Of a DNA stretch of 32,000 nt, positions 16,322 to 29,443 are shown piece after piece (within the stretch, counting starts at the first letter, position 1; the number at the start of each line of letters is the position of its first letter). Below the pieces are notes generated by a model. It made no database searches. It saw only the letters and a program-made list of their open reading frames with translations, and had not been told where the DNA came from. The stretch is from Candidatus Flavonifractor intestinigallinarum (GTDB taxonomy: Bacteria > Bacillota > Clostridia > Oscillospirales > Oscillospiraceae), in contig DWXO01000087.1 in NCBI GenBank assembly GCA_019119165.1, forward strand, positions 8,356 through 40,355. Reading direction: 5' to 3'. The position numbers were made by a program, and so were the translations under genes.

Positions 16322-17188
16322 TTAAAAGGTCAGCTCCTTGATCTGGGCAATGCCCTCCCGCTGGACGCCCCTGGCATAGGGATACTCCGGATAGCCGAAC
16401 CCCAGAATCAAGCTGTAATACCGGTCTTTAGGAATTTGCAGCAGCTGTTCCACCTCCGGCATATGGGACAGAGCCCCCACCGGGTAGGACATAATGATGG
16501 ACCCCAGCCCGTGGGAGGCGCAGATCAGGTCAAACCAGGCCGCGGCCAGCACCGGGTCGGTCTGCCACTGACCTCTGCCCCGCTGGGAGTGGATCACCAG
16601 AATGTGGGGCGCGTTGACGAAGAACATATCGCCCGGGTTGCGGCCAGGCTCCCACTCCAGCTGCTTCTCCCAATCGCTTTTGGTGAAGGAACCGGGGTAG
16701 ATCCCCTGCTCCGCCAGCCGGAAGGCCTCCTCCCGCACCAGCTTGCGCAGCTTGTCCATCTCCGCCTTCCGGTACACCACGTTGAAGCCCAGAGTCTGCA
16801 AGTTGCTGCCGGTAGGCACGTTCTCCAGCAGCCGGAGCATCTGGTCGATCTCCTCCCGGGGCACCTCCCGGTCCTGATAGCGGCGGCAGGCCCGCCGGTT
16901 GCGCATCAGGGCCTCCAGCTGGCGGGCGTTGGCCCCCTCCTCGGGCAGCAGGGAGTCCTTGGGGTCCTTGTCAAAGATGGAAATGGCGCCGGTGGGGCAC
17001 ACCGCCAGACAGTGCTGGCAGCGATAGCAGCCGTCCCAGCCTGCCACGCCGTCGGCCTCCTCCTTCATTCTGGGGACTCCCTGCCCGTCAAAGTACAGGA
17101 TCACCGAAGAACAGGATGCAACGCACCTGCCGCAGTGGATACATTGATCCGGGTTTGCCTTGAAATGAAAGCTCTTCACCAGCTCCAC
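16322..17188 (-). CDS. 4Fe-4S dicluster ferredoxin domain fused to a nitroreductase-family flavoprotein
   Basis: N-terminal CIHCGRCVASC and CYRCQHCLAVCP motifs. The rest is nitroreductase-like (RRACRRYQDREVP...NVPTGSNLQ...). GTG start at 17188 or GTG at 17179; the exact start is uncertain. Confidence 0.8.
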   Translation of the reverse strand: MELVKSFHFKANPDQCIHCGRCVASCSSVILYFDGQGVPRMKEEADGVAGWDGCYRCQHCLAVCPTGAISIFDKDPKDSLLPEEGANARQLEALMRNRRACRRYQDREVPREEIDQMLRLLENVPTGSNLQTLGFNVVYRKAEMDKLRKLVREEAFRLAEQGIYPGSFTKSDWEKQLEWEPGRNPGDMFFVNAPHILVIHSQRGRGQWQTDPVLAAAWFDLICASHGLGSIIMSYPVGALSHMPEVEQLLQIPKDRYYSLILGFGYPEYPYARGVQREGIAQIKELTF

Positions 17189-21291: not shown

Positions 21292-21320
21292 TTGCAATCA
21301 GCAAAAGATTGCGGTATACT
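21292..21320 (+). promoter_or_regulatory. Sigma-70 promoter of the riboswitch-controlled operon
   Basis: TTGCAA (21292-21297), 17-nt spacer, TATACT (21315-21320). A second candidate, TTGGTT-N16-TATAAT, lies just upstream (21259-21286). Confidence 0.65.
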
Positions 21321-21369
21321 AAAAAAGTATAAAGTAAATATCAAGCAGATACGATGAGAAACTTGTGTG

Positions 21370-21533
21370 ACACAGGTGCTCTTTATCATAAGCCGGTGAG
21401 AGTCCGGCGCGAAAGGCCGTGTTCGTCGTGAGACATCAGCCGGCAGTGATCGTACATCAGGGAGCACCCTCTTGGGAGTCGTAGGCTGTTTTGTATCCAT
21501 GCGGTCTTTCCGAAGAGGAAAGACCGTTTTTTT
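21370..21533 (+). ncRNA. Unclassified structured leader element (possibly a compact cobalamin-like aptamer or an sRNA) with its own intrinsic terminator
   Basis: The closing helix pairs GGTGCTC (21375-21381) with GAGCACC (21462-21468). It encloses the hairpin GCCGG-TGAGAGT-CCGGC and a GCGAAAG loop. A strong terminator follows: CGGTCTTTCC-GAAGA-GGAAAGACCG plus T7 (21502-21533). Confidence 0.4.
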
Positions 21534-21554
21534 ATGCCAGAATAAAATATAGCT

Positions 21555-21840
21555 TTTTGTGGCCGCAGAGGAAGATTCGGGCGGCTGAACAAGGGAATCG
21601 GGTGAGAATCCCGGACGGTAACCGCCGCTGTATGCGTGATGTCCGCTGCTCGTCAACGAAAGTTCGCCATTGGGGACGTGCCCTGAGAAGGCAGAGCAGA
21701 CCGGCGAAGGCAGGAATACCCTGCCCCAAGCGCAAGTCAGAAGACCTACAAAAAGAGACCGGCCAGGTGTGGGACGCTGCACTTGGCATTCGTTACGCAG
21801 AAAAACGGCTGTGGATCTCAGGATCCGCAGCCGTTTTTTC
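21555..21840 (+). promoter_or_regulatory. Cobalamin (B12) riboswitch with terminator expression platform
   Basis: Conserved core AAGGGAATCGGGTGAGAATCCCGGACGGTAACCGCCGCTGTA (21591-21632) and B12 box AAGTCAGAAGACC (21734-21746). Outer pairing GGCCG/CGGCC. Terminator ACGGCTGTGGATC-TCAG-GATCCGCAGCCGT plus a T run (21805-21839), immediately before the RBS/ATG at 21855. Confidence 0.85.
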
Positions 21841-21854
21841 AGGGAGGGATAGGA

Positions 21855-22859
21855 ATGGCGGAAGAAATCAACAAAAATCAGCTGCTGGAGCAGAAAAAAG
21901 CGGTGTTCGACATGATCGTGGAAGGCCCCAAGCTCACAGGAGAGGCGGAGGCGAAAGAGGACGATCAGTACTCACTGGACACCGAGCGAGGCGCGCAGCT
22001 CTACGCATCCTTTTCTGATGACGAGCTGCTGGAACTTCTGCGCGGAAGCGCCCAGTATCTGGGACATTCTCCCTCTCAGGGAGAGGTGCATTGGATCCTG
22101 CGTGCATATCTCAAAGCTCGTTTCAAAAATTGGCCGAGGGCATTGCGTGCAGCGGGATTGAGCCGGTCGGCGGGTCGGGGCGGAATGCCCTCAGAGCAGA
22201 TGTCTCAGAAGAACGAGGAGTACCAGCAGATGCTCAATCAAATTCGAGGTATGGCGGAACAGCTGGGCCGAATCCCACACCCGTCGGAGCTGCCTGAGAT
22301 ATGCCGGAAACTGAAAAAACGCTATCGTACCTGGGGCGAGGTTTTAGCTGCTGCCGGAGTTGAGGAAGCAGTGGCTGTCCATCTGCAGAAAGAAGAAAAC
22401 CTAAAGGATGATGAGTTGCGTATGCTCCAAGAATTGAGAACCCTCGCGGAAAGGCTGAATCGCCCGCCCCTTCGCGGTGAAGTGGAGCAAAGCCTGCGGG
22501 AATCCCTGCTCCGGCGTTTTGGATCGTGGCGGAACGCACTCTATCAGATCGATCTGGAACCGGTTCGGCGCATCACCCCCTTTGTGAATGCTCCGCTGCA
22601 GCGGGAAAAAGACAAGCAGAGGGCAACCCACCGGCAGGAACTGTACGACTGCCACTACCGGCTTTTAAAGCTGGATCCCCAAACGCAAGCAGATTTGGCG
22701 TTGGTACGGAAACTGGCGCAGCAGCTGGGACACGCTCCCGGCCGCAGGGAGGTGCCATCGGAAGTCCGAATGCGCCTACAGCGGGCCTGCGGCTCCTGGT
22801 CAAACGCCCTGTTTCAACTGGGGTTACAGGAAAAGCGTGGCAGATTCCGGCAGCGTTGA
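21855..22859 (+). CDS. Tandem-repeat protein: four copies of a ~50-aa helical repeat resembling the homing-endonuclease-associated repeat
   Basis: ATG at 21855 after GGGAGGGA. The upstream part of the track ORF covers the terminator. Four units follow the pattern L..L...A..LG..P...E.......(R)FGSW..AL...GL. An example is RMLQELRTLAERLNRPPLRGEVEQSLRESLLRRFGSWRNALYQIDL. Confidence 0.7.
   Translation: MAEEINKNQLLEQKKAVFDMIVEGPKLTGEAEAKEDDQYSLDTERGAQLYASFSDDELLELLRGSAQYLGHSPSQGEVHWILRAYLKARFKNWPRALRAAGLSRSAGRGGMPSEQMSQKNEEYQQMLNQIRGMAEQLGRIPHPSELPEICRKLKKRYRTWGEVLAAAGVEEAVAVHLQKEENLKDDELRMLQELRTLAERLNRPPLRGEVEQSLRESLLRRFGSWRNALYQIDLEPVRRITPFVNAPLQREKDKQRATHRQELYDCHYRLLKLDPQTQADLALVRKLAQQLGHAPGRREVPSEVRMRLQRACGSWSNALFQLGLQEKRGRFRQR
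22014..22826 (+). repeat. Four divergent in-frame protein-level repeats inside 21855-22859
   Basis: Repeat units lie at about aa 54-102, 121-168, 185-234 and 278-324. Shared motifs are LG(H/R)xP and (F/Y)(G/K/R)(S/T/N)W. The repeats are diverged at DNA level. Confidence 0.6.
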
Positions 22860-22886
22860 TTTGCTTTTGCGAGGTGAGGAATGTAG

Positions 22887-23828
22887 ATGAAACGAAAAAT
22901 AGGCTATCGGCTTGCCCATATTTTTCTGGTGCTGCTGGGCGTCAGCTTTTTAAGCTTCCTGCTGATGTATGTGTCGCCGGGCGATCCGGTCCGGGCCATG
23001 TACGCTGTCAGCGGCAGTATCCCGTCGGAGGAAGTATTGGAGCAAACCAGAGAGGAACTGGGACTCAACGATCCGTTTATCATCCAGTACGGCAACTGGA
23101 TCTCCAACTGTCTCCGGGGAGACTTCGGCACATCCTACTCAAAGGGCGAAGCGGTAGCGACCCTTTTGATGGAGCGGGTCATGCCCACCATCCAACTGGC
23201 GCTGCTGTCCTTGGTGATCATGGTTCTTGTGGCCGTACCCATCGGCGTATACTCCGCTTTGCGACAGAACAGCATACTGGACTATCTTTTGCGGGGCACC
23301 ACATTTATTAGCATTTCCATGCCGAATTTCTGGGTGGGATTGCTGCTGCTCTATGTGGTGGCCATGAAGCTGGGATGGCTTCCAGTGGTGTCCAACCAAA
23401 TGAACTTCCAGCGGTTGATCCTGCCAGCCGTGACATTGGCCATTGCCATGGCGGGGAAATACGCCCGGCAGGTTCGGGCGGCTATTTTGGAGGAACTGCG
23501 TCAGGACTATGTGGCAGGCGCCAGGGCCCGGGGGCTGTCGGAACGGTGCGTGCTCTGGTGCCATGTGCTTCCAAATGCTGTTTTGCCCCTCATCACTATG
23601 CTGGGGCTGTCTTTGGGCTCTCTGCTGGGCGGCACCGCCGTGGTGGAAGTGATCTTCTCCTATCCGGCACTGGGCAGCCTGGCGATCTCCGCCATTACCT
23701 CCAGAGACTATCCGCTGATCCAAGGCTATGTACTGTGGATTGCTCTGATCTATATGGCGGTCAATCTGGTGGTGGATCTCTCTTATAACCGGCTGGATCC
23801 CCGGCTGAGAAAGGAGCTGCAGGCATGA
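22887..23828 (+). CDS. ABC transporter permease, Opp/Dpp/Nik family (OppB/NikB-like)
   Basis: N-terminus RLAHIFLVLLGVSFLSFLLMYVSPGDPVRAM. Contains the EAA-type loop region (YVAGARARGLSERCVLWCHVLPNA). Confidence 0.9.
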   Translation: MKRKIGYRLAHIFLVLLGVSFLSFLLMYVSPGDPVRAMYAVSGSIPSEEVLEQTREELGLNDPFIIQYGNWISNCLRGDFGTSYSKGEAVATLLMERVMPTIQLALLSLVIMVLVAVPIGVYSALRQNSILDYLLRGTTFISISMPNFWVGLLLLYVVAMKLGWLPVVSNQMNFQRLILPAVTLAIAMAGKYARQVRAAILEELRQDYVAGARARGLSERCVLWCHVLPNAVLPLITMLGLSLGSLLGGTAVVEVIFSYPALGSLAISAITSRDYPLIQGYVLWIALIYMAVNLVVDLSYNRLDPRLRKELQA

Positions 23829-26284
23829 CCGCTGCGAAAAAGCGTTTTTTGGTGTTTGGCCTGATGGCCCTGGCTATTCTTCTTGTGGCGGTGCTGGCCC
23901 CTGTCATTGCCACCCATGATCCCAACACCTCCGTTCTGGCGGATGCGGTACAGTCCCCCAGCGGAGAACACTGGTTTGGTACAGACAAAATGGGGCGGGA
24001 TCTGTTCTCCCGTGTCATTTATGGCACCAGAACCTCCATTTTATCCACCATGGTGCTGGTGCTCAGCATTTTGCTCGTAGGCGGCGCTCTGGGCATCGTA
24101 GCCGGTTATGTCGGCGGTGTGGTGGAAACCGTCATCATGCGCGTTGCCGACATGATGGTTTCCTTTCCCGGTATGGCTCTTGCCATTGCCCTGGCCGGTA
24201 TGCTTGGCGGCAGTATCACCAGCGCCATCCTGGCCATTATGGCGGTAAGCTGGACGAAATATGCCCGTCTGGCCCGCAGCTTGGTGCTGAAGGTCAAGCA
24301 CCAGGACTATGTGCTGGCTGCTCGGATCTCCGGGACCCGGGAGCGGGACATCCTGCTGCGCTATATGGTGCCGTCAGCCCTTCCCACACTGGTCATCACC
24401 GCTGCCACCGATGTGGGAGGGATGATGCTGGAGTTGGCCGGCTTCTCCTTCCTGGGCCTGGGCGCCCAATCCACCTCCATCGAGTGGGGATATATGCTCA
24501 ACGAGGGACGGGCCTATATGGAATCGGCGCCGTGGCTGATGGTATTTCCGGGGCTTGCTATCTTTCTGACTGTGGTGATCTTCAACCTGCTGGGGGACAG
24601 CCTGCGGGATATCCTGGATCCCAGAGAGGATGAGGCGCAGCCCCATTCAAAATCAAAGAAAAGAGGAGACAAGATGAAGCGTTTGAAACAAGTATCCACA
24701 AAGGCTGCCGCCCTTCTGGTTGGAGCGATGCTGCTCTCCGGTGTACTCACCGGCTGTGGCGGCACTCCGTCCGCGGAACAGACGGAGCAGACTCACCTGA
24801 ACTTTGGTTGTTACAGTTACTCTGACTCTCTGGACCCCATTACCACAGTCAATTCCAGCTGGGCCGGCATGCGCTACGGCATCCTGGAGTGTCTGTTCCG
24901 GTTTGACGATCAGGTGGTGGCCCAGCCCTGGCTCTGTGATACCTACGAGGTCTCGGACGACTATACCACCTGGATCCTGCACATCCGGGAGGGCGTGCAG
25001 TTCTCCAACGGAAATCCTGTGACTCCCTCTGCCGTCCAGGCCGCCTTTGGGCGGCTGTACGCTGAGACAGACGCCGACCGGGGCGGCACCGGCAACTCCA
25101 ATCCGGAAATCTACCTGCCTGAGCCTGCTTTAACGGCGGATGATGAAGCGGGCACCCTGACCGTGGTCTGCCAGCGCCCCACGGGAAATCTGCCCGGTAT
25201 TCTGGCCTACCCCTATTTCTCTGTGATTGATGTGTCGGTGGTGGAGCAGGGCATCGTCAGCACTGGCCCATATAAGCTGGACAGCATGCAAGCCGGTGTA
25301 GGCGCTGAACTATCCCGTAACGAGTATTACTGGAACGGAGAAGTTCCCTACGATACCGTTTCTATTCTTTTCATCGAGGACAGCTCTACCAAAGCCATGG
25401 CCCTCCAGAGCGGGGATGTAGATTTGGTGGAAAACATCACCACCGCCAGTGATCTGGAGAAGCTGGAAGCGGATGACCGCTTTTATGTCTCCACCGCCGC
25501 AGGCGTCCGCACCGGCAACTCTTATATGAACTTCAACGGCCCTCTGGGCAATGCCGCCCTGCGGCAGGCAATTCTTATGGCCCTCGATCATGAAACCATG
25601 TGCAATGTAACAGTGGCAGGTATGTATACTCCTGGCTTTGCGGCGCTGCCGTCCTCTTTGGCCTACAACTACGATCAGCTTACCAATCCCTATCCCTATG
25701 ATGTAGAAAAGGCCAAGGAGACCCTGGATGAGGCTGGGATCGTGGACACCGATGGGGACGGCATCCGGGAGCTGGACGGCGAGAACATCAATCTGGTTTA
25801 TCTGGCCTACACCAGCCGCAATCTCAACGATTTTGCCCAGGCCATTGCCCTCCAGCTGGAGGAGATCGGCATCGGCGTTACGCTGAATGTCAGCGACTAT
25901 GACACCATCACCGCACTCCAGAACGCCGGAGAGTTCGATCTGGTTACCGCCAACACCACCACTGTGGGAACCGGCGATCCCCAGGATTTCCTCAGCTACT
26001 GGTATTCCGGCAATTCGGGAAGTTATGGCTACTATCACAATGAGGAGTACGACGCCTGCTTTGAGGAGCTGGAGGTGACCACCGACCAGGACCGGCGACT
26101 GGAATTGATTACCCGGATGCAGCAGATCCTCATCGACGATGCGGCCACCATCATCCACGGCTATTATAATAGCCGGATGATCAGCTGGACGGATCGGGTC
26201 ACCGGCGCGGAGATCGCCACCATCGACTACTATTGGCTCACCAGTGATATTGCACCCGCGGCGGAGGAAAGCAGCAATGCTTGA
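23825..26284 (+). CDS. Opp/Nik-type permease (OppC/NikC-like, ~270 aa) fused in frame to a family-5 substrate-binding lipoprotein (~536 aa)
   Basis: The permease part ends ...LGDSLRDILDPRE. It reads through 17 codons with no stop into MKRLKQVSTKAAALLVGAMLLSGVLTGCGG, a lipoprotein signal with lipobox LTGC. An internal ATG at 24674 has its own GAGGAG RBS. The C-terminal part is a typical peptide/nickel SBP. Confidence 0.75.
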   Translation: MTAAKKRFLVFGLMALAILLVAVLAPVIATHDPNTSVLADAVQSPSGEHWFGTDKMGRDLFSRVIYGTRTSILSTMVLVLSILLVGGALGIVAGYVGGVVETVIMRVADMMVSFPGMALAIALAGMLGGSITSAILAIMAVSWTKYARLARSLVLKVKHQDYVLAARISGTRERDILLRYMVPSALPTLVITAATDVGGMMLELAGFSFLGLGAQSTSIEWGYMLNEGRAYMESAPWLMVFPGLAIFLTVVIFNLLGDSLRDILDPREDEAQPHSKSKKRGDKMKRLKQVSTKAAALLVGAMLLSGVLTGCGGTPSAEQTEQTHLNFGCYSYSDSLDPITTVNSSWAGMRYGILECLFRFDDQVVAQPWLCDTYEVSDDYTTWILHIREGVQFSNGNPVTPSAVQAAFGRLYAETDADRGGTGNSNPEIYLPEPALTADDEAGTLTVVCQRPTGNLPGILAYPYFSVIDVSVVEQGIVSTGPYKLDSMQAGVGAELSRNEYYWNGEVPYDTVSILFIEDSSTKAMALQSGDVDLVENITTASDLEKLEADDRFYVSTAAGVRTGNSYMNFNGPLGNAALRQAILMALDHETMCNVTVAGMYTPGFAALPSSLAYNYDQLTNPYPYDVEKAKETLDEAGIVDTDGDGIRELDGENINLVYLAYTSRNLNDFAQAIALQLEEIGIGVTLNVSDYDTITALQNAGEFDLVTANTTTVGTGDPQDFLSYWYSGNSGSYGYYHNEEYDACFEELEVTTDQDRRLELITRMQQILIDDAATIIHGYYNSRMISWTDRVTGAEIATIDYYWLTSDIAPAAEESSNA

Positions 26285-27056
26285 GATCAATGGGCTGACG
26301 GTTGCTTATGGAGAGCGCCTGGCATTGCGGAATTTCTCTCTTTCCATGCAGGAGGGAGAGATCGTAGCCCTGGTAGGTGAGAGCGGCAGCGGCAAGACCA
26401 CCGCCATCCGCTCTGTTCTGGGGCTTCTGCCGCCGGGAGGAGCCGTGACCGAAGGAACGATCTCTTTTGAAGGCCAGCAACTGCAGGGACTTTCACCCCG
26501 GGAGTGGAAAGCGCTGCGGGGGAAGAAACTTTCCATGATCTTTCAGGATTCCGGCGCCATGCTCAATCCCATCCGTACCATAGGCTCCCAATTCCGTGAA
26601 TATGTCCGTACCCACAGCAGTCTTTCCAAAAAAGAGGCGGGGGCGCTGAGCCAGGAAATGCTGGAACGGATGGGGCTTTCCGACCCGGAGAGTATTTTGG
26701 GCGCCTATCCCTTTCAACTCAGCGGAGGTCAGCGCCAGCGGGTGGGCATCGCTATGGCCATGGTCTTCCAGCCAAAGCTCCTGTTGGCGGATGAGCCTAC
26801 CAGCGCATTGGATGTGACCACCCAGGCGCAGATTGTCCGGCAAATGCTGGAGTTGCGGGATACCTATGGCACGGCTATTCTTCTGGTGACCCATAACCTG
26901 GCGGTGGCTGCCTACATGGCCAGCCGCATCCTGGTTATGCGCAACGGCAGCACTGTGGAACAAGGCGACCGGGAGAGCCTTCTGCGAAGTCAGGAGCCAT
27001 ACACCCGCCAACTGCTCCAGGCGGTTCCGGATCTGGGAGGGAAGCGTTATGTCTGA
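26277..27056 (+). CDS. ABC transporter ATP-binding protein (OppD/NikD-like)
   Basis: ATG at 26277 follows GGAGGAAA and overlaps the SBP stop. Walker [10 protein letters not shown], signature LSGGQRQR, Walker [13 protein letters not shown]. Confidence 0.9.
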
Positions 27057-28002
27057 ATGCATTTTGGAGGGGCGGGGGCTTACACGCCGTTACCGGCGAC
27101 CGGATGGGCGAATTCTGACCGCCTGCCAGCAGATTGATCTTCGCCTTTATCCCGGAGAGACACTGGGAATCGTAGGGGAAAGCGGCTGCGGCAAGAGCAC
27201 GCTGCTACGGATGTTGTCCCAGCTGGAGCGGCCTGATGAGGGACAATTGCTGTTTCGTGGGGAAGATGTGACCGGCTGGAAGGGCGAAAACCTGCGCCGG
27301 CACCGCAGGCATATCCAGATGGTCTTTCAGGACCCTGCCGCCGCCTTTTTCCCACGAATGCGGGTATGGGATGCCGTGACGGAACCGCTGCGCAACTATT
27401 CCTCCTGCTCCAGAGGAGAGTTGCGGGAGAAAGCCAAGCAGTTACTGGAAATGGTAGAACTCCCACAGGAGTTTCTGGACCGGTATCCCCACTCCATGAG
27501 CGGCGGCCAGCGCCAGCGGCTGGGCATTGCCCGGGCCCTGGCGCTGGAGCCCGAGGTGCTTTTATGTGATGAGGCCACCTCTGCTCTGGATGTCTCCACC
27601 CAGGATCAGTTGGTAGAACTGCTGGTGGAGCTCCAGCGGCAGCGGGAGCTTGCCATCCTGTTTGTCTGCCACGATCTGGCCTTGGTCCAGTCCCTTTCCC
27701 ACCGGATCATGGTGATGTATCTCGGCGTAGTGGTGGAGTCGCTCCCCAGCAGCTGTCTTGCAAAAGACGCCCTTCACCCCTATGCAAAGGCCCTTCTGGA
27801 GTCTGTCTTTTCTCTGCATGACAACCATGAGAGACTCATTGTCCCTCTCTGCGGGGAGGTGCCAAGTCCCATTGACCGTCCTGCCGGCTGCCCCTTCCAT
27901 ACCCGCTGTTCCCACTGCACAGAGCTTTGCCGTACCAAAATGCCGCAAATGACCGCTGTGGGGCCGGAGCATTGGGTGGCCTGCCACCGATACAGCGATT
28001 GA
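27049..28002 (+). CDS. ABC transporter ATP-binding protein (OppF/NikE-like, with Cys-containing C-terminal extension)
   Basis: Walker A GESGCGKST, signature MSGGQRQR, Walker B LLCDEATSALD. The C-terminal CPFHTRCSHCTELC is typical of Opp-type ATPases. It overlaps the preceding stop. Confidence 0.9.
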   Translation: MSECILEGRGLTRRYRRPDGRILTACQQIDLRLYPGETLGIVGESGCGKSTLLRMLSQLERPDEGQLLFRGEDVTGWKGENLRRHRRHIQMVFQDPAAAFFPRMRVWDAVTEPLRNYSSCSRGELREKAKQLLEMVELPQEFLDRYPHSMSGGQRQRLGIARALALEPEVLLCDEATSALDVSTQDQLVELLVELQRQRELAILFVCHDLALVQSLSHRIMVMYLGVVVESLPSSCLAKDALHPYAKALLESVFSLHDNHERLIVPLCGEVPSPIDRPAGCPFHTRCSHCTELCRTKMPQMTAVGPEHWVACHRYSD

Positions 28003-28019
28003 TTTTAGGAGGAACCGCC

Positions 28020-28955
28020 ATGCAGATAACAGATAGGAAAGAGTGGGAGGCCGGTCGGATCACCGGCACACTGCCCGTACGGGGCGGCCCAGGCCTGCCG
28101 GTATGGATGATTTGCGGAGCATCGGACGGTCCAACTCTGGTGCTGACCGCAGGCGTCCATGGCTGTGAATATGTGGGCATCATGACGCTACGGCGGCTCT
28201 TTGCTCAATTGGCTCCGGCCCAGATTCGGGGGCGGGTGATCCTGCTGCCGCTGGTCAATAGCGAGGGCTTTTATGCCGGAAGCAAACAGGTGGTGCCAAG
28301 CGATGGAAAGAATATCAACCGGGTCTTTCCGCCTCCGGAGAAGGGTACGATGGCCCAGGAGATCGCCCGGACTGTGGTGGAGCAGATCTACCAGGAGGCC
28401 GACTTTCTTCTGGACCTCCACGGCGGAGATGTAAATGAGGCGATGACGCCCCTGGTGTTTTACCCGGCTACGGCTGCGCCGGAGGTGACGGCACAGGCCC
28501 GGGAGGCTGCACAGCATCTGGAAGTTCTGTACCGCATTCCCTCCACCGCCCAAAACGGATTGTACAGCTATGCAGCCCAATGCGGCATTCCCGCTCTGCT
28601 GATGGAGGTGGGCGGCATGGGCCTCTGGACGGAGGAGCAGGTGGAACTGGAACTGCGCAGCATACAGAGTCTGATGGGATATCTGGATATGGGACCAACT
28701 CCTGTCAAAAACAGCCGACAGCAGGAAACGATGGAGATGTGTTATACAGAGGCGGATACCCCGGGTCTATGGTTTCCTGAGGTTAAGGCAGAACAGTTGA
28801 TTTCCGCCGGGCAGATGCTGGGAAGAATCGAGGATCTGGAGGGCCGCATCCTCCAGACGATCCACGCCCGCTGGGATGGCATGGCGCTATACCATACGGT
28901 CTCCTTGGGCGTGACAACAGGAGATGCCCTTGTGGCATACGGGAAGATAGGATAA
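28020..28955 (+). CDS. Succinylglutamate desuccinylase/aspartoacylase family (M14-like zinc deacylase)
   Basis: ATG at 28020 after TAGGAGGAA. Zn motif region LTAGVHGCEYVG, then NRVFP and DLHGGD blocks. Confidence 0.75.
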   Translation: MQITDRKEWEAGRITGTLPVRGGPGLPVWMICGASDGPTLVLTAGVHGCEYVGIMTLRRLFAQLAPAQIRGRVILLPLVNSEGFYAGSKQVVPSDGKNINRVFPPPEKGTMAQEIARTVVEQIYQEADFLLDLHGGDVNEAMTPLVFYPATAAPEVTAQAREAAQHLEVLYRIPSTAQNGLYSYAAQCGIPALLMEVGGMGLWTEEQVELELRSIQSLMGYLDMGPTPVKNSRQQETMEMCYTEADTPGLWFPEVKAEQLISAGQMLGRIEDLEGRILQTIHARWDGMALYHTVSLGVTTGDALVAYGKIG

Positions 28956-29122
28956 ACGAACCGCAATGACAACTTGCTGCAATAATTCAGAGTTCTTTTT
29001 AGTAAAGCATCTATTTTCCTGTTCCTTACCCAAGCAAGATAATTTACTGTATAAAGATAAAAGACCAGTAGATATGTTGGACGTCTTGTGGTATTGTGTG
29101 TTGCTACCAGGAGGTGCAACGC

Positions 29123-29443
29123 ATGAACAAACTACTGAAAGACATCTACGACTGCTTCTATACCCCGCCTGAGTTTTCGGAGCAGAAGCAGGAAGTGGAA
29201 GAATGCCACCAGGCACTGATTAAAGTCCTGGAGAAGCCGGAACGGCGGCTGGTGCTTCGAATCATGGATGCCCAGGGTCTGATGGCAGAGGAACGCTCCA
29301 TCGACAGCTTTATCTCTGGATTTGAGCTGGCGTGGCAGCTCTCCATGGAACTGAATCAATATGAAAAAGAGCGCTCAGTCTCTCGTTGTACGGCGAGGAG
29401 ATCGGGCGCTCTTTCCATGTCCGGAAAGGAGGAAGCAACATGA
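29123..29443 (+). CDS. Small helical hypothetical protein (106 aa)
   Basis: ATG at 29123 after AGGAGGTG. MNKLLKDIYDCFYTPPEFSEQKQEVEECHQALIKVLEKPERRLVLRIMD... The stop overlaps the next start (ATGA). Confidence 0.6.
   Translation: MNKLLKDIYDCFYTPPEFSEQKQEVEECHQALIKVLEKPERRLVLRIMDAQGLMAEERSIDSFISGFELAWQLSMELNQYEKERSVSRCTARRSGALSMSGKEEAT

Follow-up and report, generated by a model that had tools for sequence, protein, structure and literature searches.

Why should a cobalamin riboswitch stand before an importer of the peptide/nickel family, a zinc hydrolase and a repeat protein? The question is raised by an operon at 21855-28955 on the + strand of a 32,000-nt stretch of contig DWXO01000087.1 from Candidatus Flavonifractor intestinigallinarum; the whole stretch is referred to here as the window. 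On balance, it is probably a B12-repressed uptake operon, in which a Nik-family importer would bring in chelated cobalt, with the hydrolase as its partner and with the repeat protein made alongside. The evidence includes the riboswitch, the conserved linkage of hydrolase and importer, and the tendency of M14-bearing genomes to have the B12 synthesis marker CbiD.

Riboswitch and operon structure

The riboswitch and the operon consist of the following features:

21540..21767, + strand: cobalamin riboswitch aptamer, RF00174 (85.6 bits, full model 1-189)
21800..21846 (about), + strand: intrinsic terminator of the expression platform, 18-bp stem followed by U6 (from folding)
21855..22859, + strand: HNH_repeat protein, 334 aa (PF18780, 142.9 bits, four stretches)
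22887..23828, + strand: NikB-type permease (NF045470 Opp2B, 393.9 bits, cut-off 350)
23825..24673, + strand: NikC-type permease part of an 819-aa open reading frame (ORF) at 23825-26284 (NF045474 Opp2C, 307.8 bits, cut-off 300)
24674..26284, + strand: family-5 substrate-binding lipoprotein part, in frame with NikC (PF00496, 248 bits)
26244..27056, + strand: NikD-like ATPase (TIGR02770, 231.8 bits, under the cut-off of 318.7)
27049..28002, + strand: NikE/DppF-like ATPase with an oligo_HPY C-terminal region (Pfam and NCBIfam matches)
28020..28955, + strand: AstE/AspA-family (M14-like) zinc hydrolase, 311 aa (PF24827 AstE_AspA_cat, 104.5 bits, cut-off 25)

The cobalamin riboswitch is the only Rfam family above threshold in the window. 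Its match on the + strand covers the complete model, with a score of 85.6 bits against a gathering score of 31.5 (E 5.5e-20), and bears out the aptamer call of the preliminary description of this DNA. The terminator hairpin begins 33 nt past the end of the aptamer; the region 21735-21848 folds with an energy of -50.4 kcal/mol (z -5.7 against shuffled sequences). A ribosome-binding site (RBS) and the ATG at 21855 come after this terminator. Riboswitch and terminator are orthologous to those of two related operons that have no repeat gene (L040 and L044; alignment A5).

The six ORFs are close-packed, with gaps of at most 27 nt or overlaps. In gene order the junctions are 27 nt, -4 nt, an in-frame junction between NikC and the substrate-binding protein (SBP), an overlap, -8 nt and 17 nt. 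A scan of the window sequence found no promoter-like site on the + strand inside the operon and no terminator-like hairpin there which matches the strength of the two leader hairpins. It had been proposed that seven close-packed genes are governed by the riboswitch. The layout and the lack of an internal + strand promoter-like site agree with one such unit, but it contains six ORFs and not seven genes.

The importer and its binding protein

NikB and NikC pass the NCBIfam cut-offs for nickel permeases; they are well under the cut-offs of the Opp and Dpp models. The best match of NikE is DppF-like, and its top scores are against the DppF and OppF models. In Pfam, the transporter proteins of the operon match BPD_transp_1 and SBP_bac_5 only, and no component of the BtuFCD or ECF-CbrT type is found among them.

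An RBS (AGAGGAG) and an ATG (24674) of its own, as well as an LTGC lipobox, mark the SBP part, but it reads on from NikC without an intervening stop codon. The in-frame junction is kept in the window, in L038, L040 and L044, and in genome G358, with NikC identity down to 73%. A NikC~SBP fusion is also found in L019, independently, and in none of the remaining layouts. Being conserved across loci, the in-frame junction is not an assembly error. The lipoprotein signal sequence of the fused SBP could act as a membrane tether.

Comparison of the SBP part with the ligand-binding residues of NikA had been suggested as a way of judging its cargo. The SBPs were aligned with E. coli NikA by MAFFT; identity is about 22%, so that single positions may be misplaced. 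Eight residues were compared (Tyr22, Met27, Arg97, Trp100, Arg137, Trp398, Tyr402 and His416), which form the pocket of NikA for Ni-(L-His)2 and Ni-aspergillomarasmine complexes (PMC11091072). None of the eight is found in the SBP clade of the window, and thus there is no NikA-type pocket. In contrast, the SBPs of riboswitch-less loci with a LysR-type regulator (L047, L053 and L093 among them) keep seven; the eighth, the metal-ligating His416, is Tyr in them. The usual partners of the hydrolase are therefore true NikA-like metal-chelate binders. A second riboswitch-controlled SBP, in genome G462, keeps all eight. By sequence, the window transporter is thus of the Nik family in its permeases but is not NikA in its pocket.

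The M14 hydrolase and its association with importers

His47, Glu50, His134, Arg101 and Glu196 of the M14 protein are invariant in 12 diverse homologues (alignment A1). They correspond to the His-x-x-Glu...His zinc site, the Arg of the NR-FP motif and the catalytic Glu. Among solved structures, 3cdx comes closest (E 1.3e-24), and the nearest ones as a group are uncharacterised AstE/AspA proteins and DoeB. The protein is below all NCBIfam equivalog cut-offs, including those for DoeB (79.8 against 402.7), aspartoacylase (21.7 against 180) and N-acetylornithine deacetylase (18.9 against 400).

A search of 151 genomes of the source's family and 401 of the class found the M14 protein in only 12 and 13, respectively; its gene nearly always adjoins Nik/Opp-type ATP-binding cassette (ABC) genes. 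The best orthologous operon, in G358 of another family, has the riboswitch, NikB, a fused NikC~SBP of 830 aa, NikD, NikE and M14, at 54-73% identity, and has no repeat gene. L038, L040 and L044 show a riboswitch and then NikB, NikC~SBP, NikD, NikE and M14. The co-occurrence of M14 with B12-regulated Nik-like operons, which the preliminary description had put forward as worth checking, thus recurs, and does so in other gene orders as well. The order in G060 is riboswitch, M14, SBP, NikBCDE; in G462 and G248 it is riboswitch, a CsoR/RcnR-family gene, M14, NikBC-SBP-DE. L089, too, has the riboswitch, M14 and Nik genes in an order other than that of the window. In L092 and G097 the riboswitch lies directly before M14, and G097 has a cobalamin riboswitch and M14 alone. 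Reading of the ORFs in G462 shows that a LysR gene separates M14 from NikB. This locus (L029, 8773-11677) therefore carries two protein regulators, CsoR/RcnR-family and LysR, within one riboswitch-controlled unit; a second riboswitch at 16970 precedes the SBP with the complete NikA pocket.

Another 80 M14 loci were recovered from reference genomes, in Oscillospiraceae, Lachnospiraceae, Clostridiaceae, Negativicutes, Desulfovibrionaceae and Synergistaceae. Nik-type genes adjoin M14 in about 60 of these 80. The layout seen most often has the order LysR, SBP, NikBCDE, M14 and no riboswitch. A covariance model was built from ten riboswitches found in these loci; it detects riboswitches in L038, L040, L044 (weakly), L089, L092 and the Phascolarctobacterium group. 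A quick maximum-likelihood tree was made of 99 M14 sequences; in it the riboswitch-linked genes are scattered over five or more separate places. The broad occurrence of M14 beside Nik genes, together with these separate places, indicates that the link between hydrolase and importer is old and general. B12 control is seen in several separate lineages of M14, either through repeated gain or through frequent loss.

Since M14 is conserved together with Nik-type importers, a role in processing the carrier is reasonable. The enzyme probably acts in the cytoplasm, where it would hydrolyse the organic molecule that carries the metal in or a small acyl-amino compound related to it. A deacylase acting on an imported carrier had been suggested earlier, with either a cobalt-metallophore or an acylated or peptide-linked corrinoid precursor as the cargo. 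The conserved partnership with Nik importers agrees with the general idea; no positive evidence was found for the corrinoid precursor.

B12 synthesis and metal-related neighbours

CbiD was used as a marker of the anaerobic corrin pathway. It is present in the genome of the window (G000, 85.6% complete) and in all four of the other riboswitch-M14 genomes tested. It is found in 41 of 50 M14-bearing genomes, compared with 38 of 196 near-complete genomes across the class; as related genomes are not independent, these figures describe a strong tendency and not a formal test.

Genes with a possible connection to metals recur in the M14 clusters. The riboswitch-controlled unit of G462 includes a repressor of the CsoR/RcnR family, which has a His-rich N-terminus and a C-H-C fingerprint. 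A 636-aa heavy-metal P-type ATPase of the CPC type, without an N-terminal metal-binding domain, recurs beside riboswitch-bearing Nik-M14 clusters in Oscillospiraceae, Butyricicoccus and Negativicutes (L023 9722-12981, L024 670-3974, L099-L116). A MatE exporter gene recurs beside riboswitch-bearing and riboswitch-less M14 clusters alike. Genes for class-I S-adenosylmethionine methyltransferases are also seen repeatedly at the end of, or beside, B12-riboswitch-controlled Nik-type operons (L150 2127-3110, L151 3736-4587, L029 5937-6824).

There is a published precedent for cobalt as the cargo. The NikABCDE systems of C. tetani and D. hafniense, which are preceded by B12 riboswitches, were predicted to be cobalt-specific (Rodionov 2006, as cited in Zhang et al. 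2009, PMC2667541). The cobalt precedent on which the preliminary description relied is supported to the extent of this citation.

The repeat protein family

The first gene of the operon encodes four helical modules of about 50 aa each and no signal peptide. The only Pfam matches of the protein are PF18780 repeats; no HNH nuclease domain is found. An AlphaFold (AF2) model is all helical, with four three-helix modules (pLDDT 82). Foldseek gave no significant match in the PDB, and a search of the ESM Atlas returned only the protein's own cluster. PF18780 is present in 91 of the 91 homologues searched, the 'longer' length class lying outside this search. In a few distant homologues the repeats are joined to other domains, including PF04539 Sigma70_r3, and one homologue (P0209) bears the JGI name 'LexA'.

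Among M14 loci, the repeat gene is found only in the window and in the near-identical L038. The family itself is more widespread. G000 has a paralogue on contig C89 (L120 6250-8211), which is the first gene after a second cobalamin riboswitch with its own terminator. The window protein matches it with a BLASTP E of 1e-8 and shares an N-terminal SFSD-ELLE motif. The paralogue starts at about 6598 and is followed by a 306-aa protein with three CarboxypepD_reg domains and then by polA.

Repeat homologues are found in 20 of 401 genomes of the family. Outside G000 they occupy 28 distinct places, and in 14 of these a riboswitch lies within the 3-4 kb locus. All six orthologues at 58-81% identity have a riboswitch directly upstream. 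Three of 400 class genomes, all of other families, have a homologue, and again the riboswitch is directly upstream in each. Overall, the repeat-family gene is directly behind, or flanked by, cobalamin riboswitches in 19 of 33 places. By chance, a random 3.5-kb locus would hold a riboswitch about 0.6% of the time, an estimate based on the four riboswitches in the 2.3 Mb of G000. Upstream riboswitches are always on the same strand and just before the homologue; in L130/L147 and L146 the same-strand matches are only downstream. The preliminary description had left the repeat protein unexplained. It is no peculiarity of a single operon, but belongs to a family tied to cobalamin riboswitches.

Five kinds of operon follow the repeat genes: two kinds of Nik-type ABC operon, an ECF-like one, one with DUF4430/SLH proteins resembling corrinoid binders, and one with CarboxypepD_reg domains. 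Most of the five include B12- or cobalt-uptake genes. In L121 the repeat gene precedes a Nik importer of the window type. In L150-L152 it stands before a different Nik-type importer, whose genes open with the SBP and close with a methyltransferase. An ECF-like transporter follows it in L168, and a DUF4430 protein in L169. Several loci have one riboswitch before the repeat gene and another after it; for L160, both are supported by Rfam (45.7 and 69.9 bits). L160 (2050-9256) and L162 (4020-10567) consist of a short riboswitch, a repeat paralogue, a second riboswitch and an SLH-anchored protein of 1617-2042 aa with Big_2 and DUF4430 domains. DUF4430 is the C-terminal domain of transcobalamins (PMC4350170). 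These SLH proteins have the appearance of corrinoid binders at the cell surface under B12 control.

A ratio of nonsynonymous to synonymous divergence (dN/dS) of 0.12-0.23 shows that the repeat family is under purifying selection. The copy in L038 (3785-4789), a 95%-identical relative, has an in-frame TAG at codon 48, and the remainder is intact. Between the window and L121, dS is 0.89 for the repeat gene and 0.40 for the adjacent nikB, an approximately twofold difference which may point to a separate history of the repeat gene, or to its exchange. Insertion of a 'riboswitch + repeat gene' cassette behind an older, decayed riboswitch was considered and ruled out, as the riboswitch and terminator of the window are orthologous to those of L040 and L044. 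According to this alignment, only the repeat gene lies between the terminator and nikB, and the leader upstream of the riboswitch is a separate element. This suggests that the repeat gene was inserted between terminator and nikB. The best guess is that its product is a nucleic-acid-binding factor made only under B12 limitation.

Proposed function and alternatives

The proposed mechanism is as follows. When adenosylcobalamin is abundant, the aptamer would favour the 18-bp terminator, and transcription would end before the first gene. When B12 is scarce, the six ORFs would be transcribed as a single unit. NikB, NikC~SBP, NikD and NikE would then assemble into an ABC importer of the peptide/nickel family, the most likely cargo of which is cobalt bound to a small organic chelator. 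The cobalt would feed the cell's own anaerobic B12 pathway, alongside a riboswitch-controlled CbiMNQO. The hydrolase, to judge from its linkage to the importer, would act in the cytoplasm and cleave the carrier once imported, or a related acyl-amino compound. The product of the first gene would be a cytoplasmic array of four helix-turn-helix-like HNH_repeat modules, a putative nucleic-acid binder.

Several observations weigh against this explanation. Apart from the missing NikA pocket, the SBP is under the cut-offs of the NikA models (145.6 against 393 and 221.8 against 600), and NikD and NikE miss the Nik equivalog cut-offs (231.8 bits against 318.7 and 241.2 against 332.6). Most M14-Nik loci have LysR and no riboswitch, so the module may have a general role unrelated to B12. 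In G097 the riboswitch and M14 are kept but the transporter is missing, which indicates that M14 itself is wanted under B12 limitation. No cbi genes were found beside any M14 locus, only cross-matches to ATPases. G000 also has the riboswitch-controlled CbiMNQO, and a second cobalt importer is thus not strictly needed. An SPC motif marks cobalt-type P1B-4 pumps; the motif of the neighbouring P-type ATPase is CPC, and its assignment to this type was dropped. Finally, each module of the repeat protein resembles TetR-type N-terminal domains with Z of 4-5.3 (root-mean-square deviation 2.2-2.8 A over 50-64 residues), a weak resemblance, under the level regarded as meaningful for helical proteins.

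Three other cargoes or roles can be considered for the importer. It could take up a corrinoid or a late precursor such as cobinamide or cobyric acid, with M14 acting on it as an amidohydrolase in a CbiZ-like role. The SBP pocket, which is not NikA-like, would suit this, and family-5 SBPs can hold tetrapyrroles such as haem; however, we know of none that transports corrinoids. The sole FecCD-type permease found in G000 is on a contig without a riboswitch match, and repeat paralogues elsewhere precede DUF4430 (transcobalamin-type) surface proteins (PMC4350170), both of which are in keeping with corrinoid uptake. On the other hand, the commonest SBP partners of M14 have the NikA metal-chelate pocket, and the same clusters also contain a heavy-metal ATPase and a repressor of a metal-sensor family. 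M14 genomes are overwhelmingly de novo producers, whereas a salvage system would be expected in auxotrophs too. Corrinoid uptake is therefore quite unlikely, and deacylation of a corrinoid precursor, as proposed in the preliminary description, is disfavoured by the de novo producers and the canonical NikA-like SBPs with which M14 is associated. Import of an organic nutrient is very unlikely. Here a peptide or N-acyl amino acid, for example a source of methionine, would spare a B12-dependent reaction, and M14 would free the amino acid. The system does belong to the peptide/nickel family, NikE scores best against DppF and OppF models, AstE/AspA enzymes deacylate N-acyl amino acids according to their family names, and most relatives are under a LysR-type regulator, which is frequent in catabolic and salvage operons. 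But the permeases pass nickel equivalog cut-offs but fall well short of the Opp and Dpp ones, the SBPs of the LysR-type loci retain the NikA pocket, M14 associates with CbiD, and the clusters have metal-related neighbours. That the system is mainly a nickel importer, with the B12 riboswitch as secondary or inherited control, would agree with the nickel-permease matches of NikB and NikC. It is most improbable given that the riboswitch is conserved before orthologous operons in several families, and the published prediction, as cited in Zhang et al. 2009, assigns cobalt to Nik systems preceded by B12 elements.

The repeat gene might be a selfish remnant of the homing-endonuclease type with no role in B12 metabolism, residing beside riboswitches because they are conserved, multi-copy DNA targets. 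The name of the Pfam family refers to homing endonucleases. Only some of the orthologous operons have the gene (the window, L038 and L121 do; L040, L044 and G358 do not), there are several paralogues per genome with one to four repeats, the L038 copy has its premature stop, and the gene shows twice the dS of nikB when the window is compared with L121. All of this is in keeping with a selfish element. It is less easily reconciled with the lack of a nuclease domain, with the purifying selection, with the constant strand and position of the upstream riboswitches (L130/L147 and L146 excepted), and with the dedicated short riboswitch, passing the Rfam threshold, that some copies have. A selfish origin is considered rather unlikely, though a nucleic-acid-binding factor and a domesticated or selfish element that settles beside riboswitches would both fit the data; the B12-repressed cobalt-uptake operon is retained as the preferred explanation. 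A bolder version of it is held with as much reserve as the selfish origin: the HNH_repeat proteins might be a new class of B12-riboswitch-controlled trans-acting factor, and importer, M14 and the MatE exporter of relatives might form a hitherto undescribed cobalt-metallophore cycle in gut anaerobes. If so, the B12 regulon would extend beyond the genes that have their own riboswitch.

Upstream leader and downstream region

Two further features lie upstream of the riboswitch:

21292..21320, + strand: promoter-like site TTGCAA-17-TATACT (consensus match only)
21346..21535, + strand: structured leader with its own terminator, 21501-21527 followed by T7 (from folding and local resemblance to the aptamer core)

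The promoter-like site is the only one on the + strand 5' of the operon. Within the leader, which stands immediately before the riboswitch, only 35 nt (21392-21426) resemble the core of the cobalamin aptamer, with 14.9 bits over positions 46-78 of our own model (R1); no Rfam family matches the leader at E<=10. Its counterpart in L038 is 98% identical, too similar to show covariation. The leader could be a small RNA, or else an aptamer that is decayed or of a variant type.

Downstream, no terminator is seen 3' of the M14 stop codon, where an AT-rich spacer (28956-29123) follows. Read-through from the operon past this stop is possible. The genes beyond the spacer encode DUF6550 and DUF6076 proteins and have the appearance of mobile-element cargo.

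Significance and comparison with known systems

How much B12 gut anaerobes can make is limited by their supply of cobalt, and gut communities are shaped by B12 and its analogues. This operon family offers concrete proteins for studying the capture and release of chelated cobalt. The repeat family, found before five kinds of operon which are mostly concerned with B12 or cobalt uptake, gives access to a member of the B12 regulon that had gone unrecognised.

The combination of a B12 riboswitch and a Nik-type importer as a predicted cobalt uptake system is already published. It is an old prediction, and we know of no experimental test. What is new here is the failed NikA pocket in the window clade as opposed to the conserved pocket in LysR-type relatives, the conserved permease-SBP fusion, the association of M14 with CbiD, and the association of riboswitches with a repeat protein, for which the literature search found no counterpart. 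No paper was found in that search on 'homing endonuclease associated repeat' or on a riboswitch-repeat-protein association, the PF18780 literature found being concerned with repeat modelling; nor was there one joining 'cobalamin riboswitch' with 'succinylglutamate desuccinylase'.

The closest known systems are the Nik systems of C. tetani and D. hafniense. As far as the cited account of these describes them, they likewise have a cobalamin riboswitch before a peptide/nickel-family ABC importer in a B12-producing clostridial genome, and cobalt supply would be repressed when B12 is sufficient. Compared with that account, the window differs in its SBP, which lacks the NikA pocket and is fused to NikC, and in the co-transcribed M14 and HNH_repeat genes.

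The NikABCDE system of E. coli, the substrate of which is Ni-(L-His)2 (PMC11091072), has the same five components, and NikB and NikC of the window score 278-310 bits against the NikB and NikC models. Control in the window is by a B12 riboswitch and not by NikR, its genes run B-C-A-D-E, its SBP, a lipoprotein, is fused to the permease, and all eight of the pocket residues checked differ.

In the staphylopine Cnt system, the metallophore is made in the cell, exported by the MFS exporter CntE and recovered by the Opp-family importer CntABCDF. An Opp/Nik-family importer for a metal-chelator complex would be common to both systems, and a MatE exporter recurs beside the importer in relatives of the window operon. 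Unlike Cnt, the window has no biosynthesis genes of the CntKLM type, its proteins score far under the cut-offs of the Cnt models, a hydrolase is found in place of the synthase, and the operon has no exporter gene.

The hydrolase shares PF24827, the His-Glu-His ligands, the Arg and the catalytic Glu with the AstE/AspA enzymes, which include succinylglutamate desuccinylase, aspartoacylase and the N-acetyl-diaminobutyrate deacetylase DoeB. It differs from them in being far under the equivalog cut-offs and in forming a clade of its own that is linked to Nik-type importers.

B12 riboswitches of Listeria and Enterococcus control regulatory RNAs for pdu and eut genes. The window would resemble these in that a B12 riboswitch controls a diffusible factor besides the genes in cis. 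Whereas the factor is an RNA in those genera, the hypothetical regulator of the window would be a protein built of helix-turn-helix-like repeats.

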